Positions 8,864 through 48,851 of a DNA stretch of 64,000 bases are shown one piece after another. Location of the stretch: the IMG/VR virus record IMGVR_UViG_3300043427_003288; one strand, written 5' to 3'. This DNA is from an uncultured virus (IMG/VR IMGVR_UViG_3300043427_003288) (taxonomy: Duplodnaviria; Heunggongvirae; Uroviricota; Caudoviricetes). The notes beneath the pieces are model-generated. The model was not told the origin of the DNA. It was given only the letters and a program-made list of their open reading frames with translations, and did not search any database. A program made the position numbers and the translations under genes. The first letter of the stretch is position 1. Every line of letters begins with the position of its first letter.

Positions 8864-9643
8864 ATGTCTAAACCCATAATTGTCATAACTCATGAGCGCT
8901 CTGGCACTCATTTATTGATTAATTGCATCAACTATGCTAATAATGGACAGTTTTATACAATTGGTTACACGCCAAACGAAAACCTTTTTAATTTAAAGGG
9001 GCATTTTCATGTTACGCATAAAGATGTTATGTCTAATGCGTATGCTACAAACTTAGTCTGTAAGTCCCACCATCAGGTAGATTTTATGACGAGTTATATA
9101 GATTTTTTATTTGCTAAATATAAAGTTATATATGTTAAAAGAAATTTGCCTGATGTTCTAACAAGCTATTACAGATTTATTCCAAAACCGGAAGAAAAAG
9201 ATTTCCCAAACATAGAAGATTGGGTTTTTAGTAAACCGGATGACATTGGGCATAAATATTTACAGCCTTACTCTCCCGACCCTCATATTATAATTGAACC
9301 AGAAAACTATATTCACCGTTGGTATTTGCACACAAGTGGCTGGCTAAAATATGCCAGCAAAATGTTAGTGGTTAATTACGAAGATATGCTACTTGATTAC
9401 CAAAATCAAAAGCAAAGAATTGAAGATTATATTGGCGGGAAAATTGCCGACAAAATTCCAGACATAAACGATAAGTCGCTTCCAAATTTTGGCCCAGTTA
9501 AAGGAATCATTGGCGCGCATAAAGAACTTATGTCAGAAGAGCTTCAGAAAAAAATTGAAGATAAGCTTTCTATCTATACAATTAGAGAGAAGCATGAAAA
9601 AAGAGAACCTAGTTCTAACCATCTCAATTGGGGATTATTATAA
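8864..9643 (+). CDS. sulfotransferase family protein
   Basis: N-terminal PAPS loop THERSGTHLL; IYVKRN..DVLTSYY; V.YEDM. Confidence 0.75.
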   Translation: MSKPIIVITHERSGTHLLINCINYANNGQFYTIGYTPNENLFNLKGHFHVTHKDVMSNAYATNLVCKSHHQVDFMTSYIDFLFAKYKVIYVKRNLPDVLTSYYRFIPKPEEKDFPNIEDWVFSKPDDIGHKYLQPYSPDPHIIIEPENYIHRWYLHTSGWLKYASKMLVVNYEDMLLDYQNQKQRIEDYIGGKIADKIPDINDKSLPNFGPVKGIIGAHKELMSEELQKKIEDKLSIYTIREKHEKREPSSNHLNWGLL

Positions 9644-11192
9644 CGAAGTCGCAAAGATTACTTTGCCGTCGATCAAAAAATACGCCGAAAAAATCGGCGC
9701 CGATTTCTTAAACGTTACAGAGTTCAATAAGTTTTATATTACGCAAAAATGGAATAAGTTCCTGATTGCGGAACTCCTAAATCAATACAAGAGAATCATT
9801 TATCTTGATGTTGATATTTTAATCAGAGATGATTGCCCAAATCTTTTTGAAATTGTGCCCGAAAATAAATTGGGCATGTTCAACGAAGGGCGATACTCGC
9901 CGCGATTTGAATATCTGGAGCAAGCTTCAGAGTATTACAAAGAGCCGCTAAAGAAGTGGGGCGGCAAGTTTTACAACTCTGGCGTGATGGTTATTTCGCG
10001 GGTTCATAAGCAAATTTTCAGACTCCCAAAGGGCGTTGACTTTGTAGAGACTGATCAGCCCTACATTAACCTCCGAATCCTAAATGATAAGGTCGAGATG
10101 CATGACTTGCATTACGACTTTAATCGTATGGATATTCTTGATAAGTTCTGTGGCATTTCTCGCCTAAATTCTTATATTGTCCACTATGCTGGCGCTCCAA
10201 AAGATATTCAAATGGACGTTATGCTTAAGGATATAGACCAATGGGAAAAAGACAAGCAAGAAGGATATAAATATAAGCGTAATATCTTGATTTCTGTTAC
10301 TGCTGGAATGGGCGACCAGCTTTGCTCAGAGCCCGCTATCCGATACACTCAAAAGATGTATCCTGATGCTAACATTACTGTAGTGTCGCATTTCCCGCGA
10401 CTATTTGAGCATCTTAGTTGTCCAGTAGTAAGCTATGATCAATGGAAGGGGATCAAAGACGCTTTAATTACAATGCATACTTGCCCTGATGATGAGCAAT
10501 CAGAGCATAAGATGTCTCACGTTCTTTTCCATCCTACCGATTTCGCTTCAATGTCCATGATTAAGCGAACAATCCCAAACAACGACAAAACAATTCAATT
10601 AAAATTGGACGCCGAGGATGTTTCTTATGTTATTGATTTGTTCAAGGATAAAGATCCTAAGAAGCCTGTTGTTGTAGTTCATGCTGGCAAGTGGTGGCCT
10701 TCAAAGACCCTGCCAATTGAATGGTGGCAGCAGATCGTGAATAAGCTTTCAGAGAAGCTGACTGTTGTTCTCATTGGTAAGACTATTGATGAGAAGCAAG
10801 GTTATCTCCCTGTACAAATTCCACAAGGCGGCTATGATCTGAGAGACCTCACAACTCTTGGTCAGCTTTTTGCCCTTATTTCGCTATCAAGATGCTTGGT
10901 CACTAACGATTCCTCGCCCCTGCATATCGCGGGCGCGTTCGATAACTGGATCGTCACATTCCCAACTTGTAAGCACGAAGACCATATCCTGCCATTCCGC
11001 AATGGAACTCAAGCTTATAAGACCAAGGCTCTACGTAAGAACCTTCTCCTAGACGACCTTGAAATTCGCCATACAGAGTTCAAGCATGACACTATCGACT
11101 TGATTCCAAAAGGGAAAACAGTGCTTGAGTATCTCCCAGAGGTCGATACTGTCGTTAAGGAAGTAATGGACATTTACGATAACAAGCGATGA
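9594..11192 (+). CDS. fused glycosyltransferase (GT8-like N-terminus, GT9/heptosyltransferase-like C-terminus)
   Basis: IIYLDVD, YNSGVMV, DQPYIN, HYAG (GT8); GMGDQL, NDSSPLHIAGA (GT9). ATG 9594 preferred over the upstream TTG. Confidence 0.8.
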   Translation: MKKENLVLTISIGDYYNEVAKITLPSIKKYAEKIGADFLNVTEFNKFYITQKWNKFLIAELLNQYKRIIYLDVDILIRDDCPNLFEIVPENKLGMFNEGRYSPRFEYLEQASEYYKEPLKKWGGKFYNSGVMVISRVHKQIFRLPKGVDFVETDQPYINLRILNDKVEMHDLHYDFNRMDILDKFCGISRLNSYIVHYAGAPKDIQMDVMLKDIDQWEKDKQEGYKYKRNILISVTAGMGDQLCSEPAIRYTQKMYPDANITVVSHFPRLFEHLSCPVVSYDQWKGIKDALITMHTCPDDEQSEHKMSHVLFHPTDFASMSMIKRTIPNNDKTIQLKLDAEDVSYVIDLFKDKDPKKPVVVVHAGKWWPSKTLPIEWWQQIVNKLSEKLTVVLIGKTIDEKQGYLPVQIPQGGYDLRDLTTLGQLFALISLSRCLVTNDSSPLHIAGAFDNWIVTFPTCKHEDHILPFRNGTQAYKTKALRKNLLLDDLEIRHTEFKHDTIDLIPKGKTVLEYLPEVDTVVKEVMDIYDNKR

Positions 11193-14930: not shown

Positions 14931-15227
14931 ATGACAGGAAAGGAATATCTTAGCGATAGGGTTAAGGCAAACACCTCTGATTTATTCAAGAGGATGCTTG
15001 CTATTTTAGAAGACGTTAAGCATGAGCATGATAGGCAGTTCGAAATGCTACTCGCTTCTTCCCCAGAATCTTTTAAGCCTGTAGTAAAACAAGCGAATTA
15101 TCTCGATGAGGGTAAAATGGCGCTTTACCGCAAGCGCATTTTAGACATGGGCAATGAATCAATCAGAAAAACTGCGTCTGAAATTGATTTTGTCAGAATT
15201 GAATTTCATCACACCTTTAAACAATGA
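14931..15227 (+). CDS. hypothetical protein
   Basis: 98-aa ORF coupled to the next gene by ATGA. Confidence 0.7.
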   Translation: MTGKEYLSDRVKANTSDLFKRMLAILEDVKHEHDRQFEMLLASSPESFKPVVKQANYLDEGKMALYRKRILDMGNESIRKTASEIDFVRIEFHHTFKQ

Positions 15228-15961
15228 AAGAACTATTTAGCTTCAATATTAAAGTTAACAAAGAAGTTGAGAAGACCGAGACAAAAGAGGAGAACGGCAA
15301 GACTATCTCTGTCACTCAAAAGGTAAAAGAAGATGTTCCTGTAAAGATCATCATCAAGAGTCCCTCAAGAAAGAATATTGAAGATGCCGATATGCAGTTA
15401 AGCATCGAAATGTCGAACTGTATTAAAAAAGGTATTCTGACAAAAGGAATGCTTCTCAAGAAATATTCTGACTCTGGCGGTTTTATTCTGGAGGAAGACC
15501 GAAAAGAACTCGCAAGGCTGAATGCTTTTGTTATTTCAAAGCAAGACGAGTATTCAAAAATGATTTCAAGATCAGAGAGGGATAAAGTAGCTGAAGATGA
15601 AATTATTGAAACGATTATGTCCGCTAAGAGAGCAATGCTGGAATATGAATCTGCTTACGCCAATCTTTTCGAAAATACTGCGGATTCGATTGCAGTAAGC
15701 AACGTAATTCGCTGGTTTTGCTTGCATATGGCTCACAAGCAAGAGGGCGATGGTCCAATTCAGCCCTTATTCGAAGGAGAAACTACCGAGGAAAAGCAGG
15801 CTTCTCTTCACAAGATGGATGAGGCCGAAGAGCCTATTTATTCAAAAGCTTATAGAAAACTCGCCACCTTTGTTTCATTCTGGTATTACAGCAAGAACGC
15901 AAAGAAGGAAGATTTTGAAAAGCTAAATTCCGACATTGAAAACGGAACATTTACTACATAA
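15224..15961 (+). CDS. putative tail assembly chaperone
   Basis: Helical, charged protein two genes upstream of the tape measure gene; call is positional. Confidence 0.5.
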   Translation: MKELFSFNIKVNKEVEKTETKEENGKTISVTQKVKEDVPVKIIIKSPSRKNIEDADMQLSIEMSNCIKKGILTKGMLLKKYSDSGGFILEEDRKELARLNAFVISKQDEYSKMISRSERDKVAEDEIIETIMSAKRAMLEYESAYANLFENTADSIAVSNVIRWFCLHMAHKQEGDGPIQPLFEGETTEEKQASLHKMDEAEEPIYSKAYRKLATFVSFWYYSKNAKKEDFEKLNSDIENGTFTT

Positions 15962-16928
15962 TCAGCTTTTTATAAGATTTAACGAAATAATAAAAGGATT
16001 CTCTGAAAGAAGGTTAGAGAAAGAAACTATATATATTAAACACCTCTCCAATGATGAGAGGTGTTTTTTGTATTCAAAGTATCAAGAGTTCTTTGATTAC
16101 GCTGGTAAGTTAGGGCTCCCTTCAGAAAAGGATGCTTTGGAAAAGGCTATCGATGATGATTTTTGGAGCGAAAAAAACGAGAAAGAGATAAAAACAAGTG
16201 AAGACTTCATCGAAAGAATGAAGCTCACTAAAAAAAATCTTTTCAAGCAAAGAGATATAGAGGTTATAGAAAAAGATTTAAAAGCCGAAGAGGAAAAATT
16301 GAGAAATAAGCTTGAAGAAAGAAGAGAAATTTTAGGCAAAACAAAGGAGGATTATGCAGCTAATAGATCGAACGATTATGTACTCTACTTAAGTCTTTAC
16401 AAAAATAGAAGTTTTACAGAAAAATATTTTGATTTGGAATATTTTGAGGAAATGTCTCACTCTGAGTTAGGCAAATACATACTTTTTTATAACGAATTTT
16501 ATAAAGAATTCGATGATCTCTGCACTCAAAGAATAGCGTTAGCTGATTTTTATAAGCCCTATTATATTGTTTTGGATAGTCCAAATGATTTTTTGGGAAA
16601 GCCGCTTTGTGAATTTACTGAGCTTCAAACAAGAGTTTTAATTTACGGAAAAGTTTTTAAGAATATTTTTGAAAATAATGAAAATATTCCAGAAAAGATA
16701 ATGAACGATCCTGAAGAATTATTGAAATATGTCGATAAAACAAAAGCTGAAGAAAAGTTTAACAAAAGCAGAAAAAAGTCTTCAGCCAACTCTAGCGCAG
16801 AAATGGTATTCGGGGCATCAAAAGATGAACTTTCAAAGTCAAAAGACACTAAAATGGTCAATGACGTAATGAAAGAAAAGAAAAATTTAACTATGGAAGA
16901 GTTAATGAAATTACATGGAGAGATGTAA
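15936..16928 (+). CDS. putative tail assembly chaperone
   Basis: Helical protein immediately upstream of the tape measure gene; TTG start uncertain. Confidence 0.5.
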   Translation: MKTEHLLHNQLFIRFNEIIKGFSERRLEKETIYIKHLSNDERCFLYSKYQEFFDYAGKLGLPSEKDALEKAIDDDFWSEKNEKEIKTSEDFIERMKLTKKNLFKQRDIEVIEKDLKAEEEKLRNKLEERREILGKTKEDYAANRSNDYVLYLSLYKNRSFTEKYFDLEYFEEMSHSELGKYILFYNEFYKEFDDLCTQRIALADFYKPYYIVLDSPNDFLGKPLCEFTELQTRVLIYGKVFKNIFENNENIPEKIMNDPEELLKYVDKTKAEEKFNKSRKKSSANSSAEMVFGASKDELSKSKDTKMVNDVMKEKKNLTMEELMKLHGEM

Positions 16929-16960: not shown

Positions 16961-19900
16961 ATGGCAAAAGGAATCACAGTCCCGGTCACTCAAACTGGAT
17001 TATCGCAATCCATTCAAAATGCGGTTAAGCAAGTTGGCGGAATTAGCGTTCCGGTTGACATTGATTCAAGATCATTCAAAAACCTCTCTCAGCCGCTAGG
17101 AAGAATCACTGGTTTGGCGACTGAGTTCGAAAAGTCAATTGCGGCATCGAATGCCCGTGTTATCGCATTCGGCGCTTCAGTTGGAATTATAAATGGTATT
17201 CAAGGTGCTTTTGCTGAACTACTTAGAACGGGTATAGAGGTTCAGAAGATATTGGCGGATATTGCCGCTATCTCAGGTCAATCTGGGGCAGAACTTTCGA
17301 AGTTTGGCGATTCTATTTTTGATGTCGCAAAAAATACTAGTCAAAGTTTTAAAGTAGCCGCTCAAGCTGCTCTTGAATTCTCTCGTCAAGGCTTGAGTAC
17401 TGATGAGACGATCAGAAGAACAAACGATGCTCTTACTCTTGTAAGATTCACTACATTAAATGCCGCAGAGGCAGTTGATGTTTTAACTGCGGCAACAAAC
17501 TCATTTTCAGACACGGGAATTACAACTTCTGAAATTTTGAATAAGCTTGTTGCGGTTGACACTAAATTCGCGGTTTCGGCGGAAGACCTTGCCAACGGTT
17601 TGGCTCGCGCAGGCTCGATTGCTCAAGAGGTTGGCGTTTCATTCGATGAGCTTAATGCGGCTATTACAATTACTCAAGAGAGAACTGCTCGCGGTGGTGC
17701 AGTAATCGGCAACGCATTAAAAACAATTTTCACAAGACTGAGAAGTGATGAAACAGTCAATGCGTTAAGATCTATTGGCGTAGAGTCTTTAAATGCCCAA
17801 GGGGGATTAAAAGGAGCTATTCCTCTTCTTCAAGAAGTAGCCACAAAGATTGAAAATCTTTCTGGAGGCGAAAGAGTTCAAATTTTAGAGGCAATTGCTA
17901 GCAAGTACAATATCAATATTCTTTCTGCTCTTTTAAATGACTTGAACGCCGCTAACGGTAAGTTTGCCGAGGTTGTTCAAATTTCAGGATCAGCGCAAAA
18001 TCAAGCTTACGAAAGACAAATAGAATTAAATAAAACTCTTGCTGCTCAGATAAATCTTACGACTGTTTCTGTTACTCAGTTATTCAATAAGCTTGCTGAA
18101 ATTGGCGTGACAGAGAGCTTAACAAGCATACTGAAATTCGTTAATGATTTATTGGATGGCTTCAATAAGCTTTTAGACTCGGAAACAACTGGCAGCAACA
18201 TCGCAAAAGGTCTGATCAAAGGCATTTCTGATGTTTTCTTTACTGTCGGTTTGCCAATTATTGGAGCTATCTTTATAAAGCTAACAAAAGATATTGCCCA
18301 ATTCGGCGTTGAGTCTTTAAAAACAATTTTAGGCATTAACCAGCAAGTTAGAGAGCGCCAAGCTCTTGAGCAAGCTGTAGTAAATACTTTGATTAAGGAT
18401 AGAGATGTAATGGCGTCAATTCTTGCCTTGAGTGGAGATAGAGCAAAGCAAGAAGAGTATTTGCTAAATGTTTATAATCGCCAAATTTCTGCTCTTGAGA
18501 GAGTTCAGTCTATAGCAACTTCTGTTGCTCCTGCTTTAGTGCAGGGCGGTCTTTCTGCTACTAGCGGAACTGTACAACGCAGAGCAGCAGACGGATATCT
18601 CCCAGCGCAAGAAGCTGCGGATGTAAAGCGAGGCGTTGGTGGTGCGGACAAGAATGCAAAGGTGGTTAAGATCCCTAATTTCTCTTTTGGTGGTGGCAAG
18701 AAGGGTACAATGTACGCAAATACCAGCGAATATATTGTTCCTAATTATAATGGTGGCGATGGGACTGCTATCTTCAACAAAGATATGGTCAGTAAATACG
18801 GAAAGCCAGAAAATGCTAAAAAGATAAATGCGGCAACAGGGTATATTCCAAATTATATAAAAACCCAGCCTAAAAATATTCAAGCTATTCGTCAAGGTAA
18901 AAAATTTGAACAAAGTTTAAATTTAAAACTATTTGGAGAAGCGTCATATGCAGCTAATGCTGTTTTAGATTTTCCAAAGCCAGAAGGTTTTGGTGCAGAC
19001 TCCGAAGTAAAAAAAGAACTTGGAATAAATCCACAATCAGAGTACGGAGATGCAAAAAGAACCCAAAGCAGAAAAAGCGAAAAGAGTTTATTAGATAAAT
19101 ACCTGAGAACTCCAGAAGGAAGCGCTGAGTTTTTAAATGCAAAAGAAACCGCCAGAGGATTTATAAATTTAAATCCAAAAGGTTTGTCGATGCTATTTTT
19201 AGAACAAGGTCAAGACGCAAAAGAAACCGCTTATCTTGGAACAAAGGAGTCTATTTTATCAGAAAAAACAAAAGATTTGATTAAAACAAAATTTGGAGAT
19301 AAAAAAGCTAGCAAAACTATTGCTATGCCTTATATTGCCGATAAAATAAATAAAAGTGAACTGAGTGCTAAAAAAGCTTCGACTGGTTATATTCCAAATT
19401 TTCAGCAGCAGGCGGTTGGCGAAAAGCAGCTTACCGCAAAAGAAAAGGAATTAAAAACAAAGGCAGAGAAAGTAATAAATAATAGGGTTGGCAATACTTT
19501 TGGTACTGCGGCAATGCTGGTCAAGGATCAAGATGATGAGCAAAAAGTCAGAACAGATAAAACTTATCCTTGGGGTTTTGAGCCAAAAGAGCCAGAAAAT
19601 AAAATATTTGGAAGAGTAAAGTTCCCAGTTTATGGCTTAAAGGATAGTGGATTGCAGCAAGCAAAACTTGGCGCTGTTCCAAAGATCAAAGAGCCATTAG
19701 ATAAAATAGCTTTAGATTTCGGCACTTCTGTTTCTTCAGATCTGGCTGGAAGACAGGTCAGCCAAGCTGAGTATCAACAATCATACAAAAAATCTTTTGG
19801 TGCTGCTGGAGCTTTCGGAGGTGTTGTCGGAGGCATCTTTGAATCTGCCGCAAGAGTAGCTTTTAATTTTGAAAGCGACAAAGTTAATACTTTAGACGTT

Positions 19901-22900
19901 CCAAATATTCCTGATCCAATGCGATTGGCTTTCGGAATAACTGGAGGAGAAAGAAGCGCCGATCTTAAAGGTTCTGTTTCTGATGGCGTTTTAAGAGGGT
20001 TTGCAAGTCAGGCAGTAAAAAATAATTTAGTTAAAGAAGAGGTCAGGGAAATGACTAATGCGCCAAAGAAAGTTGCCGCAAAAGGATTTGTTCCAAATTA
20101 TGCCGAAAAACTTACAGAAATGTATGATTGGGATGGCACTATCATTCCAAAAATCTCAGGAAAGCCCGAAGAATATATTCAGTCGATCCAGAAACTTGAA
20201 AAGAAGGATCTTCTTCCCGTGGGCAAAGAGCTTGCCGCTTCAAAAGAAAAGTTTGATATTGCAACTGCTAGACCAATTGCATTTAAAGATCCAATTAAAA
20301 ATGCAGCCCAAAATCTCGGGCTCAATGTTGAAAAAGTATTTCCTCTTGGATCAATGTTTGAAAATCGCAGGGCTCAAGGCAAAAGAGGTCCGAGAAAACT
20401 TTACACTCCAGAAAGAAAAGCATTATTCGCGGAGAAGACTGGTAGATCTATCGTTGATGATGAAGAAGAGAACTTGATGGCTCTTGGATCTCGCGGCATA
20501 AATGCAAATTTAAGAAATCGCGGCGCTTTTGGGTTTATTCCAAATTTTGCTTCTCAAAACGCAATAGACGCAATGAGAAGAATCGTCTCAGACCCTGCCG
20601 CTCCACAAGGAGAAAAAGATGCAGCGTCGTTAAAACTTTCTCAACTTACAAAAGTAAGTTCATTAAATAATCCAAGAGTTGCGGCGCAAAAGACCACAAA
20701 AATAAAGCTTCCAATAACTCAAGAGGACAAGGACTATCTTAATCAGAACAAGGAAAAAATTGTCGCAGGAATGGGCAGAAGTTTTGGAATGTTATTTAAT
20801 TTAGATGCTTTGGAGATGGGGGATTTAGGCTACGTAAAACGTTTGGATCCAATAGTTGCAAAAAAATTGTCGGAAATAGCGCAAAAACAAGGTGGCAGAG
20901 ATTCTATCAGATCTTTGGTTGATTTTGGATCTGCGGCGAAAGGGTATATTCCAAACTTTGCTGATCCACTGAAAGAGGCTGTTAATAGAGAAATCGCCGC
21001 TGGAATTAATCCCTCTCAGGTGCGCGTAACAAGAGATGATCGTTTAATGACAACCCGCAATCCAGAGGGGCTTGCGGTAATAAATACCAGAGATGAGCCA
21101 AACGGCAAAGTTCCTTCTAACAGAATAAACGAAAAGGATGGCAAAATGGCAGCAAAGGGCTTTGTGCCAAACTTTGCTATTGGTACGCCTAAAGGTGGAT
21201 ATAAAGCCGCAGAATCTTCAACTGGTGAAGCTGTAGGCATACCAAAAGATTTGCAGTCAAGTCTGATAGGATCAGCAAATAGACTTCTAAAACAATTTGA
21301 AGAAGGTGCAATTGACCAATCAAAGCTAAATGTAGCCATAAAAGATTTAGCGGCCAAGAATAATTTAACTGCTGAATCGACAAATAAATTGCAAACTCAA
21401 GTCGATGATTCAATAAAAAGATTTGAAAAGAATAAGGCTAAATCTGGCGGTGGAGGGGTTGGGCCAGACCAAGGCGGCGCTAAAGATGGAAGGTTTTCAT
21501 TAGATAAAACATTTTACGCTTTTTCTGGTCTAACTCTTGCCGCAAATGCGCTTGAGCAAGCTTTTGGAAAATCAGAAAGTGGGCTAGCAAAATTTGCAGT
21601 TGGTCTTGCAAGTGCTACTCAAGCAGCATCTCAAGGAGCGCTTCTGGGTCAATCGTTTGGAGATTTGACAAAAGGCTTGGTTGGAAAAGGCGGCGTTTTG
21701 GGGGCTTTAGGAAAAATTGGTAGCTTTGCTGGCCCTGCTGGTGCGGCTATAGGCTTGGGAGTTGGAATTTTTTCAGAAATTAATGATGTTATCAATGCTC
21801 CTCAAAGAAAAAGGGAAACAGATGCTGAAAAAAGAATAAATGAATTATCTTCTACTGCTTTAGATAAAGCAGATGAATTAAAAATATTTGAGGAGGAAAT
21901 AAGTAAAATACAAGCGCGGCAAAGAGAATTACAGCCTGGTGGGGAGGCCAGAGCACAAACTGCGGCCAATGTAGCTCAACAAAATCCTTTTGCCACTATG
22001 GGATTGGCAATGTCTATGCCAGAGCAGGACAAAAAGGATGATGAAGAAATTTTAAAACTTAGAGTTGATTTAGCGGCTACCGAGAAAAAAAGAAAAGAAA
22101 TTTTAGCAGAAATTGCGGTAAATAAGAAAAAAGAAGAAAGGGCAGTTCAAAGAGAGGCGCAAGAATTAATTAAAAGAGTTGCTTTAACTACACAAATAAC
22201 AGCCTTAAATGAAGCTAATGCCAGAGGGGAAAATGCGGCCTTGGAACTAAGGGCAAAAAGGCAGTCCGATTTAATTAAAAATTCTATTTTTCTTACAGAC
22301 ACCCAAAAACAAAGCCTACAAGACGCTGAAACTTTAACTCAGTTAGACGAAAAAAGAGATGATTTAAAAAAATCAATTCTTTTAAGCACTGTCAAAGAGT
22401 TGGGTCAAGGCAAGCTTACTACTGTTGAGGAGCAAAAATTAAATATCTTAAGAAAAAGGCTAGAAGCAGGAGAAAAAATAACCGATATTGAAAAAGAGTT
22501 AAATGCATTAGGCATTCAGGGAAATAGTGAAGCTGGAATTAAAATTACGAATGCTCTTTCTGAGTTCAGAATAAAAGATGGTCAATTGGTTGTAGAAAAA
22601 AATATCACAAGAGAAAGACAAGCCGCAAACAAAGAGGCAAAAACAGCTTTAGAGATAGAAAAAATAAGATTGAGTTATTTAGAACAGAGTTTTAAAGCGC
22701 AAAAAGAAATTGAAGATATTATGATTGCTGGAGATAGAGCTATACAAGAAGCGCAGTTAAGAACTCCTGTAGCTCAACTAGAAAACCAAATTGCAACTCA
22801 GCCATTCGCTACAAGAGGGCAGGAGGCTCAACTGGCAAAATTGAGAGAAGAATTTGCCAAATTATCCGCTCAAAGAAAAATCGATAATGATTTTGCGGAC

Positions 22901-24703
22901 ATTCAAAGAAGAAATTTTGACGAATTAAAAAATTCGATTATTTCTAATGTTGAAGCCGCAAATGAGCTTAACGGAGAGTTCGTAAAAGGTTTAGTTTCTG
23001 ACGCTAGAAAAGCACAAAGCCTTCAAGATTTAATTAATGTAATATCTGAATTAGAAGAGGCAGAAAAAACTTTGTCTGAAACGGAATCTAATTCAATAGC
23101 TAGGGAGCAAGCTACAAAGACTTTAAATGCAGCTACAGAGGCATTAAGAAAGAATAATTTAAATGTTGCTCAGGCAAAGGTTTTACTTGAAGAATATAAT
23201 AAACAACAGCAAAGGCAGATTGAATTTCGAACAAAGCTAGCTCAGTTAAGAGACGAATCTCCAGCCAAAGCTGGAATGTTCGCAGCATTTAACGAAATTG
23301 AACAAGAGTCTTATAACTTCCAAGAGACATTTGCCAAAAATACCACTCTTGCATTTAGAGACGGAATGAGAGACGCTTTGTCAGCAGCAATCTCTCAAAC
23401 TGATGATCTTGGTGCTGCTTTGCAAGATGTTGCAATGAACTTTTTGAAGACTATGCAGAATGCGTTCTTGCAGCAGGCTTCTAATCAGGCAATGATTGGT
23501 TTGCAGAATGCTTTCCCAACTGTATTTCCAAAAGGTCCGGCTCAAGGAGCTACTGGTGGTTTTGTTAGTGGCGGAAAAATTATAAAAGGGTACGCAACTG
23601 GCGGATTGGTTACTGGGGGTAGCGGATACAAAGACGATGTGCCAGCGATGCTTAGTCAAGGCGAGTATGTTATTCGCAAATCTTCTGTGGAAAAATATGG
23701 CGCCGCAAATCTTGAAAAAATGAACTCTGGGGGAATGCCCAGATTTGCTGCTGGCGGTGATATTTTCCTTCCTGGTGTTCGCGGACAAACCGCAATTTCT
23801 GGCTACAAGGATCTAACTAGATTCGCAAATCAAACTACAACTAGTGGCTCAACAGATGTAATGAAAGGCAGTGGATCTTCTGCGTTCATTAATCTTGAAG
23901 ACCAGAGCATGAGACTTTCAAGGTTCGCCCTTCTTAACGAAGATGATATAGTTAATCAAGAAATTAAATCGGCGCAACAGCAAGGGCTAGATCTAATAAA
24001 ACAAAGAGAAGCTTATAGAACGCAGCAAAGAAAAGCGTTCCAAAAGCAATTGAAGCAAACAGTGATTTCAGCAGCATTGAATGCTGGACTTGGAGCATTA
24101 AGCGCTCCTAGCCCAACAGGTACATACTCTGGAAAAGGAATTGGTTCCGAATTATATTCTCAGAGCAAAATGGCTCCTGGGACTTCTCCATTAAGTACGG
24201 GACCATCATTTTTTAGTTCATCTGGACCAGCTTCTTTTGGTGGATATTCCACTCTAACGCCAAGAGCACCATTTAAGGCTTATGGTGGGTCGATTTCCAA
24301 ATATGCAGATGGCGGTCCAGTTGATAAAATTCCCGCTCTTCTTATGGACGGCGAATATGTAATGAGCAACAAAGCCGTAAAGAAGCACGGAAAGCAGTTT
24401 TTTGATTCATTGAATCAAGGTCGCGCTCCAAGATTTGCCAACGGCGGCGAAGTTGGAGGCGGCGGTGAAATGCTGGGCGAAAAGTTTGATAATCTTTCCA
24501 GCAAGCTAGAAACGAGGGGAGCACCAGAAGTTAATATCACCGTCAACGTAACAAGCTCTGGATCTTCAGAAACTAAAGCTCAAGGTGAATCAGCCCAAGG
24601 CGGCATAGACTATAAGAAAATGTCAGAAAAGATTAAAGCTGTAGTTCTCGAAACCATTAACGAGGAAAAGCGCTTGGGCGGATCGCTGAGATCAGGTAGA
24701 TAA
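16961..24703 (+). CDS. tail tape measure protein (TP901-type core) with inserted globular domains
   Basis: N-terminal core (AALEFSRQG, AVSAEDLANGLARAGS, GAVIGNALKTIFTRL), long coiled coil, C-terminal xAxGG and D.VPA.L..GEYV repeats. Confidence 0.9.
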   Translation: MAKGITVPVTQTGLSQSIQNAVKQVGGISVPVDIDSRSFKNLSQPLGRITGLATEFEKSIAASNARVIAFGASVGIINGIQGAFAELLRTGIEVQKILADIAAISGQSGAELSKFGDSIFDVAKNTSQSFKVAAQAALEFSRQGLSTDETIRRTNDALTLVRFTTLNAAEAVDVLTAATNSFSDTGITTSEILNKLVAVDTKFAVSAEDLANGLARAGSIAQEVGVSFDELNAAITITQERTARGGAVIGNALKTIFTRLRSDETVNALRSIGVESLNAQGGLKGAIPLLQEVATKIENLSGGERVQILEAIASKYNINILSALLNDLNAANGKFAEVVQISGSAQNQAYERQIELNKTLAAQINLTTVSVTQLFNKLAEIGVTESLTSILKFVNDLLDGFNKLLDSETTGSNIAKGLIKGISDVFFTVGLPIIGAIFIKLTKDIAQFGVESLKTILGINQQVRERQALEQAVVNTLIKDRDVMASILALSGDRAKQEEYLLNVYNRQISALERVQSIATSVAPALVQGGLSATSGTVQRRAADGYLPAQEAADVKRGVGGADKNAKVVKIPNFSFGGGKKGTMYANTSEYIVPNYNGGDGTAIFNKDMVSKYGKPENAKKINAATGYIPNYIKTQPKNIQAIRQGKKFEQSLNLKLFGEASYAANAVLDFPKPEGFGADSEVKKELGINPQSEYGDAKRTQSRKSEKSLLDKYLRTPEGSAEFLNAKETARGFINLNPKGLSMLFLEQGQDAKETAYLGTKESILSEKTKDLIKTKFGDKKASKTIAMPYIADKINKSELSAKKASTGYIPNFQQQAVGEKQLTAKEKELKTKAEKVINNRVGNTFGTAAMLVKDQDDEQKVRTDKTYPWGFEPKEPENKIFGRVKFPVYGLKDSGLQQAKLGAVPKIKEPLDKIALDFGTSVSSDLAGRQVSQAEYQQSYKKSFGAAGAFGGVVGGIFESAARVAFNFESDKVNTLDVPNIPDPMRLAFGITGGERSADLKGSVSDGVLRGFASQAVKNNLVKEEVREMTNAPKKVAAKGFVPNYAEKLTEMYDWDGTIIPKISGKPEEYIQSIQKLEKKDLLPVGKELAASKEKFDIATARPIAFKDPIKNAAQNLGLNVEKVFPLGSMFENRRAQGKRGPRKLYTPERKALFAEKTGRSIVDDEEENLMALGSRGINANLRNRGAFGFIPNFASQNAIDAMRRIVSDPAAPQGEKDAASLKLSQLTKVSSLNNPRVAAQKTTKIKLPITQEDKDYLNQNKEKIVAGMGRSFGMLFNLDALEMGDLGYVKRLDPIVAKKLSEIAQKQGGRDSIRSLVDFGSAAKGYIPNFADPLKEAVNREIAAGINPSQVRVTRDDRLMTTRNPEGLAVINTRDEPNGKVPSNRINEKDGKMAAKGFVPNFAIGTPKGGYKAAESSTGEAVGIPKDLQSSLIGSANRLLKQFEEGAIDQSKLNVAIKDLAAKNNLTAESTNKLQTQVDDSIKRFEKNKAKSGGGGVGPDQGGAKDGRFSLDKTFYAFSGLTLAANALEQAFGKSESGLAKFAVGLASATQAASQGALLGQSFGDLTKGLVGKGGVLGALGKIGSFAGPAGAAIGLGVGIFSEINDVINAPQRKRETDAEKRINELSSTALDKADELKIFEEEISKIQARQRELQPGGEARAQTAANVAQQNPFATMGLAMSMPEQDKKDDEEILKLRVDLAATEKKRKEILAEIAVNKKKEERAVQREAQELIKRVALTTQITALNEANARGENAALELRAKRQSDLIKNSIFLTDTQKQSLQDAETLTQLDEKRDDLKKSILLSTVKELGQGKLTTVEEQKLNILRKRLEAGEKITDIEKELNALGIQGNSEAGIKITNALSEFRIKDGQLVVEKNITRERQAANKEAKTALEIEKIRLSYLEQSFKAQKEIEDIMIAGDRAIQEAQLRTPVAQLENQIATQPFATRGQEAQLAKLREEFAKLSAQRKIDNDFADIQRRNFDELKNSIISNVEAANELNGEFVKGLVSDARKAQSLQDLINVISELEEAEKTLSETESNSIAREQATKTLNAATEALRKNNLNVAQAKVLLEEYNKQQQRQIEFRTKLAQLRDESPAKAGMFAAFNEIEQESYNFQETFAKNTTLAFRDGMRDALSAAISQTDDLGAALQDVAMNFLKTMQNAFLQQASNQAMIGLQNAFPTVFPKGPAQGATGGFVSGGKIIKGYATGGLVTGGSGYKDDVPAMLSQGEYVIRKSSVEKYGAANLEKMNSGGMPRFAAGGDIFLPGVRGQTAISGYKDLTRFANQTTTSGSTDVMKGSGSSAFINLEDQSMRLSRFALLNEDDIVNQEIKSAQQQGLDLIKQREAYRTQQRKAFQKQLKQTVISAALNAGLGALSAPSPTGTYSGKGIGSELYSQSKMAPGTSPLSTGPSFFSSSGPASFGGYSTLTPRAPFKAYGGSISKYADGGPVDKIPALLMDGEYVMSNKAVKKHGKQFFDSLNQGRAPRFANGGEVGGGGEMLGEKFDNLSSKLETRGAPEVNITVNVTSSGSSETKAQGESAQGGIDYKKMSEKIKAVVLETINEEKRLGGSLRSGR

Positions 24704-25473
24704 TGAAATCTTCCGTATCAAATTATGAGAGCAATTTTTACCTCAGTGGCGTCAAAATACTTGGCGTTTCTGATGTAAATTTTGGCTATTCAGTTCCTGT
24801 TGAGCATTTAAGCGTCATTGGCTATAGAAAGTTTAATACTTTTATAAGCGGTCCGCCTCAAGGGAATTTGAGCGTTCAAAAATACTTGTGCCAAAATGAT
24901 CATATTTTAAATTATACTGGAGCAATACAGGCGAGCGGCGGCTTATTCTATAATAATAAAAATTTTACTTTTCAATCCGCTTATTTAAATTCTTTTAATG
25001 TTTCCTGCGCGGTGGGCAACTTTCCTCAGTTATCTGCCGATTTCTCAATATTTGGCAACGTGGGAACTGGACTTGGATTTACGACTAGTTCTACAAGTAA
25101 TCCTTTATCAGTTGTTAGACCGGGCGATATTTTAATTCGATGCGATGGTACAGGAACAAATAGAGTAGAAGCCTTCACTTATACTGTGGAGTGTCCGCGC
25201 ATGCCCATTTACCACCCAACTGGATCAACTCCAATGGAAGTGGAAACGATTAGACCATATAGAGTTAGCGCCCAATTTACTCTTGGCGTATACGATTACG
25301 AATCAAAAAGAGCTTTTGATTATATTGTAGACTCAAATAAGCAAAATATTAATATAGCTATAGGGTCATTAGCCACCTTTACTGTTAATAATATGGAATT
25401 CATAGGAGAATCAATCAATAGCTCCGCTACGGACGAGGTCTCCATGACGCTTAATTATCAGGGATTTATCTAA
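24703..25473 (+). CDS. tail-tube-like tail tip protein
   Basis: Immediately after the tape measure gene; strand pattern resembles the tail tube protein. Confidence 0.55.
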   Translation: MKSSVSNYESNFYLSGVKILGVSDVNFGYSVPVEHLSVIGYRKFNTFISGPPQGNLSVQKYLCQNDHILNYTGAIQASGGLFYNNKNFTFQSAYLNSFNVSCAVGNFPQLSADFSIFGNVGTGLGFTTSSTSNPLSVVRPGDILIRCDGTGTNRVEAFTYTVECPRMPIYHPTGSTPMEVETIRPYRVSAQFTLGVYDYESKRAFDYIVDSNKQNINIAIGSLATFTVNNMEFIGESINSSATDEVSMTLNYQGFI

Positions 25474-27134
25474 TGTCTTTCTTTTACGACAGAGACCAAA
25501 ATGTAACTGGGACAATTCCTTCGTCCTTTACTTTTGTGCCTTCGTATGGAATGCAAGTCTCATTCTCTTCTGAGCTTGCAGAATACACGACAGTTGACAA
25601 TTATCTTTATACAATCCCAAAGGCAGTTAATCATTTGCAAATGCAAATTGCTATGCCTTTTGAAAACAGAAAACAAGAAGAAGCAAGAAAGCTTGCTGGA
25701 TTTTTCGAAGGCTTAAACGGCACAGGGTATTTTTTATATACAGATCCAGCGCAGATATATAAGCCTCTTAATTTATTTTTAAATAGTATAGATAATTCTT
25801 TTGTTGAAAATGATCTATATACATTAGGTGCGACTTTATCTACAGATCAAATTTCAACCGTTTTAAATTGGAATCAGCCACTGATAACAGGCTCAAATAT
25901 AAAAGGTAATTGGGCAACTTCAACAAGCTATCAGAAGTATGATGTTGTAAGATATACAGGGAATGCTACATTTCCAAGCAATACAGGTAATCTATACGAT
26001 TCATTTTATTACTGCAAAGAGGCTCATACTTCTCAATCGTCAATTACTCCAGCTTCGGTTGATACGGTAAAATGGTCAAAGGATTTTTTCTTTCAGCCAA
26101 CTTATTCCACACCGCTTTCGAAAGAAAGCGCCGTGATAAAAACTGAACTGCCTTATTCGTTTACAAAAAGAACAAATTTTGGTTTGCACGCAAACGCATT
26201 AAAGTCTTTTAAACTAGATTTTAAGGGGGTAAGTGATGCCGAGGCTAGATGCATTCTTCACTTTTTAATAGGTAGGCAAGGGTACAAAAGGTTCCAGTAT
26301 AAAATACCAAAAATATATAACCAATTCAAGATATTTTATGCGCCGCAATGGAGTCATACTTTTGTTTATAAAAATGTAAATGATATATCGGTGACTTTGA
26401 TTGAAGATCCTCTTGGCAGGGTCAGCGAAGATATTACTAGTATATCTACTAATGGATTAATGTGTTATCTAGATCCATCTAATAGGGCTTCATATAGAAG
26501 TGGAGTCACTGTTTATGATTTGAGTGGGTCTGTCAACTCTGGAACACTGTATAATGGAGCAACGTTTGCTTCTAGAAATAGAGGTGTTTTTTCTTTTGAC
26601 GGGACTGATGATTATGTATCCGTAGCCTCCCCAAGTAATAAATTTGCTTGGAATCCAACTTCTACTTCAACTTTAAATAGCATAAGTATAGAGATATGGG
26701 TAAAGACGAGCGATACTGTTGGAAGAATAGTCTCTAAGCCTTGGAATGCAAATGGGGGATACAATTATTGGGTAGATGGTAGCGGCTTTGGCATAACTCC
26801 TGGCACTTCTTCTTATGTTCTTCCATGCACTTCTTTTGCTACAGGAAATTGGGAGCATTTTGTATATATTGCGACACCAACTCAGCTTTCTGTTTATAGA
26901 CGAGGAGTTTTAGACGCAGGTCCAGTGAATCATGGATTAAATGAAAACCCTCCAGCGAACAATAGTAATTTAAATCTCGCAATAATGACTTTATTTCCGT
27001 ATGAAGGGTCATTTGATTTTCCGAGCCATGCTATAGCTGGAGAACTTGGCGCTTTTAGATTCTACAATCGCGCTTTAACCCAAGAAGAAATAATTACCAA
27101 CTTTAACGCAGGAAGAGATAGGTTTAAAATTTAA
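25473..27134 (+). CDS. minor/distal tail protein with a carbohydrate-binding-like insert and C-terminal LamG domain
   Basis: Duplicated F.F.P.Y...L.F......EAR....F unit; W.....Y...DVV.Y...YYC..AHTS insert; LamG from about 26440. Confidence 0.6.
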   Translation: MSFFYDRDQNVTGTIPSSFTFVPSYGMQVSFSSELAEYTTVDNYLYTIPKAVNHLQMQIAMPFENRKQEEARKLAGFFEGLNGTGYFLYTDPAQIYKPLNLFLNSIDNSFVENDLYTLGATLSTDQISTVLNWNQPLITGSNIKGNWATSTSYQKYDVVRYTGNATFPSNTGNLYDSFYYCKEAHTSQSSITPASVDTVKWSKDFFFQPTYSTPLSKESAVIKTELPYSFTKRTNFGLHANALKSFKLDFKGVSDAEARCILHFLIGRQGYKRFQYKIPKIYNQFKIFYAPQWSHTFVYKNVNDISVTLIEDPLGRVSEDITSISTNGLMCYLDPSNRASYRSGVTVYDLSGSVNSGTLYNGATFASRNRGVFSFDGTDDYVSVASPSNKFAWNPTSTSTLNSISIEIWVKTSDTVGRIVSKPWNANGGYNYWVDGSGFGITPGTSSYVLPCTSFATGNWEHFVYIATPTQLSVYRRGVLDAGPVNHGLNENPPANNSNLNLAIMTLFPYEGSFDFPSHAIAGELGAFRFYNRALTQEEIITNFNAGRDRFKI

Positions 27135-27135
27135 T

Positions 27136-30100
27136 ATGGGCAGACCAATTTCATACGAAATGCAGATGATGTTTGTGGGCTCTGTTGGAGCTTTTGAAGA
27201 GGCCATGAACACAGGCAGCGGAATTAGCCGCCTTGATTTTATTCAAGGCTATGATTTTTCTTTTAATATAGACAGACCTGCGCTGAAACAAATTGGCTCC
27301 GATTCTTTTGCAACAAGACAAACTCAGTTCGCTCCAGATGTTAATTTTAACATTCAATATCTTTTGAACGATGGCTGGAATGAGAAATATATTGGATTGG
27401 ATATACCACAAGGAAGCTTGTCTAACCCATTTGATACAATTCTTTCTTCAACTGGAGATCGAAACTTTTATGTAAGCGTGGCAAAAAATGATGGCAAAGA
27501 CCAGAATTTGCAAAGCGAAATTGTTAATAGTAATATTTTATCGATAGGCAATGCTTATATCAGCAGTTATGAAATTAGCGTAGCTGTAAATCAGCTAGCA
27601 ACAGTCTCCTGCTCTTTTGTCGGCTCAAATGCCAGTGTTCAAGATTATGAAACTTCTAAGTATTTGCCATCTGTAAATAGTGCCGTTACTGGTCAAAACG
27701 CCGAAGATGCTAATAAAAAATTTGCTCTTAAATTCTTAAATAATAATAGAAATCAAGCCTATATTCCAAAAGCTACTGAAACTTTTGCAGGAGGTTGTCC
27801 GTATAGCAAATGTAAAATAACTCCAGATTTCCAATCTGATGGAGTGAAGTCTCCAATTACTTTTGGGTTTTTTGACGCTGTTGCAAATAACTTTCAAAGT
27901 ATGCAGTTTGCTGTTCAGTTTGAACGGAAATCTCTTTATGGGTTTGGGAACAATCATCCATACGGTAGAAAAATTCAAAGGCCAATAGTTGCAACTTTAG
28001 CATTGTCGGCGCTGATTGATGATTTTCAGGCCGAAAATTTAAGCAAAGTTTTTCATAACGAAGGTTGGTCAAAAAGTTCTATCTTGATAGAATTCTTTAA
28101 TTTGTCTGATGTTAAGAAGTTTACAATATCTTTAAATAATTTAACTTTAGAGTCTTATTCGCTAGGAGCAAGGATTGGGGATAGGGTTTTGGTAGACACT
28201 AATTGGACAGTTGAAGTTAATAATGGGGGTGGGTCAAATGTAGAGATGGGCGGCTCTTATAGATATGGGACTCTTGATGTCACGCTTGTTAACGAGTCTT
28301 TTTCCATGCCTCAATTTCTTTCACAAATTGTTAGTGTTGCCGGATTGCCTTATGCGATAACTAAAGATGGCAATTTATTTTCTTGGGGTTTTTTCGCACA
28401 AACGCCTGCTTCAGACGCTGGAATAATTCCAAGAAAAGTTTTTAATAGAAGTGGCGTATCGTTGCTTGCAGATAGCTCTGGTTATTCTAGAATGTTTTTA
28501 GATAAAAACGGAAAAGCTTGGGCATGGGGAGATAATTACTATGGGTCGATTGGAGACGGAACAGTAATTTCTAGAAGTTCTCCTGTTTCAGTAATTGGAA
28601 ATAAAACATTTTGTCAAATAGCGACCAATTCATTTACTTCTTTTGGGGTTGATAAAAATGGAACAGCTTGGGGATGGGGAAGGACGCCTTTTGTTGGAAT
28701 AAACGTTACTACTGAAGGTTGTACGATTTCTCCAGTTCAAATTCTTAATTATGCGCCTTATGTTCCTTATACAGTTTGTTTTTGTAAAATATCTGTGGGC
28801 GATAGGTTTGCTTTGTGCATAGATCAAAATGGTAAAGCTTGGGGCTGGGGGGCGAATGACAATGCTCAATTAGGGATTGGTAGCATTAATGCTGGATGGG
28901 CACTCTTAAAACCAGTTTGTGGCAACAAAACGTTTTGTAAAATATCCGCTGGGTATGATCACTCGCTAGCCATTGATAAAAATGGAAAAGCGTGGGCTTG
29001 GGGCAGGGGAGACATAGGATCAGTTGGTGGTGGTGTATTAAAATGCACTCCAGTTGCAGTTTCTGGAAATATAACATTTTGTCGCATTAGCGGTGGATTT
29101 TTGAATTCTGGAGGTATTGATAAAAATGGAGAAGCTTGGCAGTGGGGAGGCGCAGTATCTCAGTATCCACTTAAAGTATCTGGTAGTAAAAAAACATTTT
29201 GTCAAATAAAAGCCGCAGGGTCTGTCTATTATGCTATAGATAACAATAATAGAGCTTGGGGCTGGGGAGATCCAAGAAATGGAAAGTTTGGCAATCCTAT
29301 ATTCGCAAATCGTAGAACGCCAACGGCCATAGGCGGCTCAACTAAAACTTTTTGTAAAGTATCAGCGCTTGTAGCTATTGATAAAAAAGGAAAAGCTTGG
29401 GCGTGGGGATATAATGAATACGGGTCGGTTGGGGATGGTTCTACGTCAATAAGATGTACGCCAGTTTCAGTTTACGGAAATAAAACATTTTGTGAAATAG
29501 CGAGCCTAGCAAACAGTGTATTAGCAATAGATAAAAATGGTAAAGCTTGGGGCTGGGGAAATAATTCACTTGGACAGTTGGGAGATGGGACATCAATTAA
29601 TAACTTGACCCCAGTTTCAGTTTATGGAAACAGAACATTTTGCAAAATAGCTAGTGGAGGCTCTACATCTATCGCTATTGACAAAAATGGTAAAGCTTGG
29701 GGCTGGGGGTTTAATTACTATGGGCAGGCTGGTATTGGTCAAGGAATTGAAGTTTCCTTAACTCCAATGTCAATAGTTGGAAATAAAACTTTTTGTCAAA
29801 TATATAATCTAAACATTGGGACTTTTGGAATTGATAAAAATGGCAAGGCGTGGGGTTGGGGATATAATTATGGAGGAGAGCTTGGAGTAGGAGCAGGATC
29901 TTATTCGAATAATTATTCTCCATTAGAAGTACTGGGAGGCAAAACTTTTTGTCAAATATTTTATGGAGGATCAAGCTCTATCGGTCTTGATAAAAATGGA
30001 AAAGTTTGGTCATGGGGTCCATATCCTACAAATATAGGTACTAATGAATATGGAGATCCTTTAGAGTTTGTTGGTTCTCCAATGGCTGTTTGCACAAACA

Positions 30101-30396
30101 AAACATTTTGTAAAATAGCTTGGGACGGAGGTTCAGTTTTAGCCACTGATAAAAACGGCAGAACTTGGGCTTGGGGATCAGATTATTATAATACTTTGTC
30201 AATTGGCGGCGGTTATTCCGCAACTCCAAAATCAATTAATGGAGATAAAACATTCAATTACATAAATATGAACGGTGCCACTTCTGCTGGCATAGATATA
30301 AAAGGAAGATTATGGACATGGGGAGATTTTTATAGAGCCCAATTAGGACAAGGAATCCCAATGACAGATACTCCTGTTAGGATATATAATTTCTAA
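27136..30396 (+). CDS. tail-tube paralogue fused to a 14-repeat RCC1-like propeller
   Basis: First ~390 aa align by eye with 11778-12941; 14 DKNG-type repeats from about 28306. Confidence 0.75.
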   Translation: MGRPISYEMQMMFVGSVGAFEEAMNTGSGISRLDFIQGYDFSFNIDRPALKQIGSDSFATRQTQFAPDVNFNIQYLLNDGWNEKYIGLDIPQGSLSNPFDTILSSTGDRNFYVSVAKNDGKDQNLQSEIVNSNILSIGNAYISSYEISVAVNQLATVSCSFVGSNASVQDYETSKYLPSVNSAVTGQNAEDANKKFALKFLNNNRNQAYIPKATETFAGGCPYSKCKITPDFQSDGVKSPITFGFFDAVANNFQSMQFAVQFERKSLYGFGNNHPYGRKIQRPIVATLALSALIDDFQAENLSKVFHNEGWSKSSILIEFFNLSDVKKFTISLNNLTLESYSLGARIGDRVLVDTNWTVEVNNGGGSNVEMGGSYRYGTLDVTLVNESFSMPQFLSQIVSVAGLPYAITKDGNLFSWGFFAQTPASDAGIIPRKVFNRSGVSLLADSSGYSRMFLDKNGKAWAWGDNYYGSIGDGTVISRSSPVSVIGNKTFCQIATNSFTSFGVDKNGTAWGWGRTPFVGINVTTEGCTISPVQILNYAPYVPYTVCFCKISVGDRFALCIDQNGKAWGWGANDNAQLGIGSINAGWALLKPVCGNKTFCKISAGYDHSLAIDKNGKAWAWGRGDIGSVGGGVLKCTPVAVSGNITFCRISGGFLNSGGIDKNGEAWQWGGAVSQYPLKVSGSKKTFCQIKAAGSVYYAIDNNNRAWGWGDPRNGKFGNPIFANRRTPTAIGGSTKTFCKVSALVAIDKKGKAWAWGYNEYGSVGDGSTSIRCTPVSVYGNKTFCEIASLANSVLAIDKNGKAWGWGNNSLGQLGDGTSINNLTPVSVYGNRTFCKIASGGSTSIAIDKNGKAWGWGFNYYGQAGIGQGIEVSLTPMSIVGNKTFCQIYNLNIGTFGIDKNGKAWGWGYNYGGELGVGAGSYSNNYSPLEVLGGKTFCQIFYGGSSSIGLDKNGKVWSWGPYPTNIGTNEYGDPLEFVGSPMAVCTNKTFCKIAWDGGSVLATDKNGRTWAWGSDYYNTLSIGGGYSATPKSINGDKTFNYINMNGATSAGIDIKGRLWTWGDFYRAQLGQGIPMTDTPVRIYNF

Positions 30397-40250: not shown

Positions 40251-40592
40251 TTAGTTAATGTCTACCTTCTTTTCTTGTTTTTTCTTCTTTGGAATTTTAA
40301 TTATCAAGACTCCATTTTTCACAGAGCATTGAACCGCAGAGAGATCGAGAGACTCTCTGCAAACCAGAAATGATCTATTGTAATCAGTGTACTCACTCTT
40401 GGCTCTAACAGAGAGCTTATAAGAATCTTCGCAATAAGTGACTGAAACATCATCTTTTCCGCATCCTGTAACGCGAAATACATAAGAGGTCGAATCTTTA
40501 TCGGAAGACTGATTAATATACGCGCAGTCATTCCAAATAGTGCCAGTTCCAGTTGTAGTAGTGTCGTAGTTTACTGAGTAGTAGTATGTCAT
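40251..40592 (-). CDS. small heat-shock protein (Hsp20/alpha-crystallin)
   Basis: V.G..KDDVSV...L.V.A....RSF......V..SVKNGVLIIKIPK and C-terminal VDI motif. Confidence 0.8.
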   Translation of the reverse strand: MTYYYSVNYDTTTTGTGTIWNDCAYINQSSDKDSTSYVFRVTGCGKDDVSVTYCEDSYKLSVRAKSEYTDYNRSFLVCRESLDLSAVQCSVKNGVLIIKIPKKKKQEKKVDIN

Positions 40593-48828: not shown

Positions 48829-48851
48829 TTATAAACTTAATTTTTAAATTA

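Follow-up and report, generated by a model that had tools for sequence, protein, structure and literature searches.

The longest open reading frame (ORF) in a 64,000-nucleotide (nt) stretch of DNA from an uncultured virus (IMG/VR record IMGVR_UViG_3300043427_003288; this whole stretch is referred to as the window) encodes a tape measure protein (TMP) in which seven copies of a short junction peptide fence six domain-sized modules. We consider it probable that this TMP is a scaffold for an array of exchangeable cassettes, which share one junction peptide and include at least one intact HAD phosphatase module, and for which we infer processing and delivery into the host. Cassette-scaffold TMPs with a conserved junction peptide are real and widespread, and represent an undescribed variant of polyvalent or enzyme-bearing TMPs: searches of the TMP literature on polyvalent, embedded-enzyme, mosaic-module and anti-defence themes and with the motif strings, mostly at the level of abstracts, returned no description of such arrays.

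By its family matches, the product is a TP901-type phage tail tape measure protein. PF10145 (phage minor tail protein) matches amino acids (aa) 122–312 (nt 17324–17896) at 87.9 bits against a gathering cut-off of 33.2, and is its sole Pfam match, while 12 tape measure PHROGs match it and its annotated PHROG matches include no other kind of family. The array (Table 1) lies between a constant N-terminal part, which is 544–554 aa long in most relatives, and a long C-terminal ruler region, and its modules A to F measure 82, 182, 233, 149, 137 and 72 aa with the leading motif counted. An earlier note on this DNA, made from the letters alone, had listed the seven motif copies, and a sequence scan returned the same nine-residue strings at the same start coordinates; it had also described the segments as Lys-rich, which holds in a mild form only, the modules containing 7–15% Lys compared to 5% in the N-terminal and 9% in the C-terminal part.

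Table 1. Features of the tape measure gene in the window, in order of position
Feature	Coordinates	Strand	Remarks
TMP gene, longest ORF in the window	16961-24703	+	2580 aa plus stop; PF10145 and tape measure PHROGs
Constant N-terminal part, aa 1-541	16961..18583	+	PF10145 and hydrophobic stretch aa 418-443
Junction motif copy 1, AADGYLPAQ	18584..18610	+	degenerate leading copy
Module A	18611..18829	+	conserved opening module, two half-motifs
Junction motif copy 2, AATGYIPNY	18830..18856	+	
Module B	18857..19375	+	accessory, conserved G..FE / DF / GDxK core
Junction motif copy 3, ASTGYIPNF	19376..19402	+	breakpoint of 501-nt insertion in relative L002
Module C	19403..20074	+	near-universal, core homologous to B
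Junction motif copy 4, AAKGFVPNY	20075..20101	+	
Module D	20102..20521	+	capless HAD phosphatase of Pnkp 3'-phosphatase type (predicted)
Junction motif copy 5, GAFGFIPNF	20522..20548	+	
Module E	20549..20932	+	accessory, predicted helical at low confidence
Junction motif copy 6, AAKGYIPNF	20933..20959	+	breakpoint of 471-nt insertion in relative L002
Module F	20960..21148	+	conserved closing module; invariant R, E, NP.G, V.N..DEP.G
Junction motif copy 7, AAKGFVPNF	21149..21175	+	
C-terminal part, aa 1406-2580	21176..24700	+	long ruler region; hydrophobic stretch aa 1586-1604
PRFAAGG, aa 2260-2266	23738..23758	+	resembles T5 pb2 VPR/AEGG (slash at the cut); second copy PRFANGG 24428-24448

The tetrapeptide G[YF][ILV]P occurs seven times in the TMP (aa 545, 627, 809, 1042, 1191, 1328 and 1400; nt 18593–21158) compared to a mean of 0.078 and a maximum of 2 in 5000 residue shuffles, and the longer form G[YF][IV]PN[FY] occurs six times compared to none in 5000 shuffles. 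Across 864 copies in 181 distinct TMPs the junction peptide has the general form [A/G][A/S]xG[Y/F][I/V]PNFA, with residue percentages of [A67/G18][A78/S18]xG[Y67/F31][I51/V29/L16]P[N80][F72][A67], where the G and P stand at 100% because they were fixed by the search pattern. The core of the first copy (GYLPAQ) is systematically degenerate, this variant accounting for 13% of the 864 copies. Module A contains two further [IV]PN[FY] half-motifs, KIPNF at aa 571 (nt 18671–18685) and IVPNY at aa 593 (nt 18737–18751), which lack the leading G[YF], are kept in the family consensus and were not listed in the earlier note.

Relatives were collected by a word-seeded HMMER search with aa 540–1410, in which 1085 of 7998 scored candidates reached E 1e-3 or better; the best 120 of these 1085 are 1453–4358 aa long and nearly all carry PF10145. 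In IMG/VR there are at least 630 related stretches, and 74 loci from these were retained. When 121 proteins and the TMP ORFs of 82 loci were split at the motif and the 753 resulting internal segments clustered, they fell into 49 families. Among 166 complete distinct relatives we found 48 module orders with 2–11 modules, the commonest being A–C (46 relatives) and A–[P-loop]–C (45). An A-like module stands first in 160 of the 166 and C is present in 148; F occurs in 59, in 58 of which it is last, and B, D and E occur in 29, 23 and 22. Judged from these relatives, A and C are near-universal core parts, as F often is, and B, D, E and the other modules are accessory. The number, identity and order of segments thus vary widely among homologous TMPs, as expected of the modular system that had been proposed from the window alone, and the description of the segments as cargo does not suit the core parts A and C.

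The array was not found in cultured phages by megablast or tblastn. The whole TMP has matches in 252 phage records, and in the best 25 of these only aa 31–440, the PF10145 part, was matched, at less than 28% identity. In a collection of species genomes 24 loci match, of which the closer relatives all lie in metagenome-assembled genome (MAG) bins of mixed aquatic taxa; four MAG bins are of Flavobacteria type, and the few distant isolate matches cover the PF10145 part only.

Exchange of modules was traced by comparing six pairs of related genes with blastn. All 10 of the indel or replacement breakpoints lie on the motif or at most 17 aa from it, nine of them within about 6 aa. The window copy (L001) and L002 are ~91–98% identical over the N-terminal part and module array, and the window copy lacks two modules, of 501 nt and 471 nt, that are present in L002. 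In this pair the overlaps of the flanking high-scoring segment pairs, 33 and 14 nt long, fall exactly on motif codons. In L036 and L004, whose flanks are 96% and 95% identical, two modules are swapped for three, and the swap spans the motif at aa 628–634 to the motif at aa 1016/1226. The identities of modules are also discordant with those of their flanks: window and L004 are 70% identical in the N-terminal part and 56% at the C end, but 95% in D and 92% in E, while window and L005 are 98% identical in the N-terminal part and 99% in E, but 79% in D and 30% in C. We conclude from these discordant identities that modules move between backbones.

That breakpoints coincide with the motif, and that its copies have a common DNA core of 14–17 nt (such as TAT ATT CCA AAT TT), is also what would be seen if the motif were a mere recombination hotspot in the DNA, or a relic of serial duplication, with no role in the protein. 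However, copies 2–7 of the window are identical at only 17–23 of 27 nt and show synonymous differences (GGG/GGT/GGA/GGC, AAT/AAC, ATT/GTT/GTG), and the N, F and flanking Ala are kept in 67–80% of the 864 copies, on backbones down to ~41% identical to the window, so that we regard a purely DNA-level origin as highly improbable. Since the DNA copies diverge at synonymous sites, the conservation of the motif, as far as its codons tell, sits at the protein level. The proposed role of the motif as a recombination anchor fits the position of the breakpoints on its codons, but not in the sense of a conserved DNA sequence. In the AlphaFold2 (AF2) model of D–E–F all four motif copies have a predicted local distance difference test score (pLDDT) below 50, and on account of these low scores the copies behave, within the model, as linkers. 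Programmed –1 frameshifting at CCA AAT TTT was considered and rejected, the slippery heptamer being present in just two of the seven copies.

Module D provides the clearest case of an enzyme in the array. An alignment made of fragments and short homologues (A10) served as input for the model of D–E–F, in which residues 12–150 of D are modelled at pLDDT 94–98. The model has a Rossmannoid HAD fold and, in a structural search against representatives, is closest to nucleic-acid end-healing phosphatases, with 9–13% identity to structures of the Pnkp type (PDB 5uj0, 1ltq, 2ia5, 4xrp); Foldseek is in agreement, with weak E-values because the query has several domains. The HAD motifs I–IV are defined as DxDx(T/V), T/S, K, and DD or D..D, and in the window D displays DWDGT as motif I (aa 1056–1060, nt 20126–20140), followed by ATAR, RK and VDDEEEN. 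Among the 16 alignment rows that cover D, DxD..T and T/S are present in all 16, and K and D(D/N) in 15. Fold and motifs together identify D, as modelled, as an intact and confidently folded capless HAD phosphatase of the Pnkp 3'-phosphatase type in which the catalytic motifs are kept.

D together with E is matched by 32 proteins at E up to 1e-3 among 1.84 billion representatives, and apart from TMPs these are polyvalent proteins of the classical kind, with InPase, DUF192, R2K ATP-grasp, 2H/Acb1-like, SNF2, LigD_N or RNA polymerase (RNAP) domains. These D-bearing polyvalent proteins lack the junction motif, and the idea that the motif is a general delimiter of polyvalent proteins was rejected on the InPase-type proteins with D homologues, which do not contain it. 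As a separate observation, several 'prohead protease' proteins of uncultured phages (436–553 aa; BFVD matches) hold a D-like HAD domain, a hint that the same cargo rides on a head protein.

The other modules of the window are less easily assigned. B and C share a homologous core of ~75 residues (hhalign 91.9%, E 6.9e-7), in which Glu, Asp and DxK are conserved: in B, F23, D44, D71 and K73 are invariant and E24 is replaced by D in one of six rows, and in C, by module numbering, F146, D165 and K189 are invariant and G143 and E147 nearly so. The signature of PD-(D/E)xK proteins is E ... D ... (D/E)xK on an alpha-beta-beta-beta-alpha core, which the E..D..DxK core of B and C recalls, a lead that is accompanied by a poor fold prediction. 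Neither B nor C found a match in PDB, Pfam or structure searches (best E 0.41 for the B profile, E 0.08 for the C profile); near-length searches for free-standing homologues of B returned one probable fragment alone, and B was found at 3 loci in the metagenome scan. Module F is modelled as a helix and two strands at pLDDT 76–86; a paralogous relationship of A and F was considered and is unsupported (hhalign 3.8%). At the E limits used, the modules of the window gave only weak, sub-threshold matches in Pfam and none in PHROGs, and ESM Atlas offered no usable match for E or B. The impression in the earlier note that several segments look enzymatic is thus borne out for D, while B and C display the conserved E/D/DxK pattern with a poor fold and E and F are without assignment; likewise, independent folding is predicted for D and part of F, but not for B and C (pLDDT 44.9 for the pair) or for E (mostly below 50).

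Further modules are found only in relatives. A Walker A (P-loop) module, placed against solved structures by its Walker A motif alone, is present in 74 of the 166 relatives and absent from the window TMP, and a GNAT module reaches or exceeds the Pfam cut-off in two proteins. P-loop and GNAT modules need ATP and acetyl-CoA, both of which are cytoplasmic cofactors. HExxH motifs occur in two module families, in 6 segments (P0020, P0025, P0036, P0037, P0083, P0103), without Pfam support; these are possible metallopeptidases that could process the array, and the window TMP contains no HExxH peptidase motif. In addition, the C-terminal part of the TMP contains a lysozyme and a sub-threshold NlpC/P60 match (20.8 bits, cut-off 23) in relatives.

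These last matches bear on whether the enzymes of the array might work at the envelope or in the periplasm rather than in the cytoplasm, in the manner of muralytic TMP domains. The TMP-borne activities that are known are cell-wall hydrolases (T5 pb2; PMC10038345), and in relatives the lysozyme and the sub-threshold NlpC/P60 match stand in the same protein as the array. However, these muralytic domains lie outside the motif array, D is nearest to phosphatases that heal nucleic-acid ends, and the cofactors of the P-loop and GNAT modules are those of the cytoplasm, all of which makes an envelope-directed function improbable.

Several observations weigh against a cargo-bearing scaffold. The window D has no Pfam HAD match at E up to 1, its free-standing homologue P0125 matches PF18143 HAD_SAK_2 at E 3e-4 and 21.5 bits, under the cut-off of 27.5, and a sequence search of solved structures with D alone gave nothing usable (best E 1.3). 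The AF2 prediction for B and C is poor, with a mean pLDDT of 44.9 and no strands in the core, E is rare and predicted to be helical, mostly at pLDDT below 50, and in the models D and part of F are the sole parts of the window array seen to fold. Three copies of folded 15–25 kDa domains would have to enter a narrow tail lumen. The junction peptide is usual yet apparently not obligatory between domains, because two module families (clusters 16 and 17, P-loop with C and family 10 with D, in L006, L007 and P0016–P0018) consist of two others joined directly, the junction motif being absent at the join. The frequencies given for modules are biased, since the relatives were gathered by similarity to the window TMP, and all members of the family are metagenomic, the array being known from sequence alone. 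Finally, the near-universal presence of A and C, by these counts, fits a structural or assembly role as well as it fits cargo.

The modules might accordingly be read as structural or assembly parts, such as lumen fillers, units for docking to a chaperone or the tube, or modifiers of tail length, with the peptide as a docking or oligomerisation site and no delivery into the host. Such a reading would accommodate the conserved core of A, C and F, for which there is no enzyme match, the lack of a confident fold in B, C and E, and the retention of the motif even in the minimal A–C form. We nevertheless hold it to be unlikely: D keeps its HAD catalytic motifs in 15–16 of 16 rows and is kin to domains of polyvalent proteins, the cofactor needs of the GNAT and P-loop modules point to the cytoplasm, and accessory modules come and go between near-identical phages, which would be unusual for structural parts.

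We favour exchangeable cargo, for which the following course of events may be proposed. Between the constant N-terminal part and the C-terminal ruler, the TMP would have become the scaffold for an array of cassettes, each a separate module (72–233 aa in the window with its leading motif) joined to the next by one junction peptide. Accessory modules (B, D and E here; elsewhere P-loop, GNAT, HExxH and many others) would be gained, lost, replaced and reordered, with the recombination breakpoints for their exchange placed in the junction codons. The array would ride in the tail lumen and exit with the TMP ahead of the DNA, and its enzymes would reach the host early, where they might heal or destroy nucleic-acid ends or nucleotide signals from host defences. 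The junction peptide would be a flexible linker under selection at the protein level, and most likely a processing or docking site related to the cut site of T5 pb2. Delivery of the modules into the host together with the DNA is suggested by the known ejection of TMPs.

Asn-driven self-cleavage at PN/F (the slash marking the cut) takes place in some insect-virus capsids. T5 pb2, a TMP with a muralytic domain and one for which ejection is known, is cut after R1127 while the tail assembles, and the two pieces remain there as a trimer (Linares et al. 2023, PMC10038345). The T5 sequence at the cut is ..NANSFVPR/AEGGMMYPGV; in the window TMP, MPRFAAGGDIFLPGV and APRFANGG stand close to the C end, and the array contains GFVPNFA. 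This resemblance is a lead on processing, as is the linker-like, low-confidence state of the motif copies in the model; against it, the match is short, and in the array motif Asn takes the place of the P1 Arg of T5. The C-terminal part of the window TMP also contains two copies of a D.[VI]PA[ML]L..GE[YF]V unit, each with PRFA.GG ~30 aa later (23642–23758 and 24332–24448). Taking the resemblance further, we put forward only tentatively, and regard as rather doubtful in its full form, that the junction peptide signals for processing and is akin in this to the T5 pb2 site. A protease, from the host or from tail assembly, or else Asn-driven self-cleavage at PN/F would make the cut and so free enzymes stored in the lumen to be expelled before the DNA, a siphophage counterpart of the lumen-loaded cargo of contractile injection systems. 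Recombination in the junction codons would reshuffle this arsenal between phages, and the damage that defence nucleases of the host inflict would be healed or forestalled by the HAD, P-loop and E/D/DxK modules.

The genes around the TMP gene are those of a tail region. PF05939 (Phage_min_tail) is found in the gene two places downstream (25473–27134), and tail fibre-like genes flank the TMP gene on both sides, with RCC1-repeat proteins also nearby; the RCC1-type repeats (PHROGs 4219, 7220 and 16766) lie in two large tail-region proteins (6563–8860 and 27136–30396). Just upstream, two ORFs (15224–15961 and 15936–16928, the second in the +1 frame) overlap by 26 nt at what is the usual site of the frameshift-made tail assembly chaperone pair, and neither has a family match. 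A set of sugar-modification genes (8864–11192, 38689–39840, 40647–41744 and 46599–50830) encodes a sulfotransferase, GT8/GT9/GT4/GT90-like glycosyltransferases, C-methyltransferases and a GDP-mannose 4,6-dehydratase (346 bits), and an Hsp20 gene lies at 40251–40592 (–). Replication and nucleotide genes occupy 41744–64000 and include SSB, dUTPase, ThyX, a RecA-like protein, DnaB, primase and Pol III alpha, together with a PD-(D/E)xK nuclease, a PHP domain, an RNase T-like exonuclease and a ClpB-like double AAA+ ATPase which runs off the end of the window. From the TMP, its tail-gene neighbours and the replication module, the source is therefore a large tailed phage, and a large uncultured aquatic siphophage is probably the best explanation of the window as a whole.

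Should the array be delivered, long-tailed phages would have in their tail lumen a compartment for protein delivery, and the idea of polyvalent proteins would extend to the tail gene that is most conserved. In hundreds of metagenomic proteins the boundaries between domains can be read from the junction peptide, which therefore supplies a catalogue of modules that are candidates for early or anti-defence action, the majority belonging to no known family. It also suggests a natural rule for the design of phage tails with added protein cargo. The rule by which the length of the TMP sets that of the tail is complicated by these proteins, as about a third of the window TMP (aa 542–1405) is array and probably not ruler.

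Among known systems, the TMPs of mycobacteriophages carry embedded host-like peptidoglycan-hydrolase motifs, small functional motifs or domains inserted in the ruler, but these inserts are single and directed at the envelope, and neither cassette exchange nor a recurring junction peptide goes with them. T4 Pnkp mends tRNA that an anticodon nuclease of the host has cleaved; identity of D to T4 Pnkp and to the bacterial Pnkp1/Rnl/Hen1 RNA repair system is 9–13%, and unlike Pnkp the TMP family has its kinase-like and phosphatase modules as separate cassettes, of which the kinase-like one is absent from the window. T5 pb2 is likewise a TMP with an enzyme domain, which is severed in tail morphogenesis but remains in the tail, and its cut site resembles MPRFAAGGDIFLPGV and GFVPNFA, but it has one cut, one muralytic domain and Arg at P1, whereas the window TMP has seven junctions with Asn at that place and modules of cytoplasmic-enzyme type. 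Polyvalent proteins are very large polypeptides with variable strings of effector-type domains that are thought to enter the host with the DNA and that include a processing peptidase of their own (MPTase) in the polypeptide (Iyer et al. 2017, PMC5512222, the text of which contains 0 mentions of 'tape measure'). The window TMP family resembles them in its variable HAD, P-loop, GNAT and HExxH modules, GNAT domains occurring in both, and in that homologues of D lie inside such proteins. It differs from polyvalent proteins with MPTase in that the window TMP has no HExxH peptidase, and from polyvalent proteins in general in that the scaffold is the TMP itself, with one conserved junction peptide as the fence between modules.

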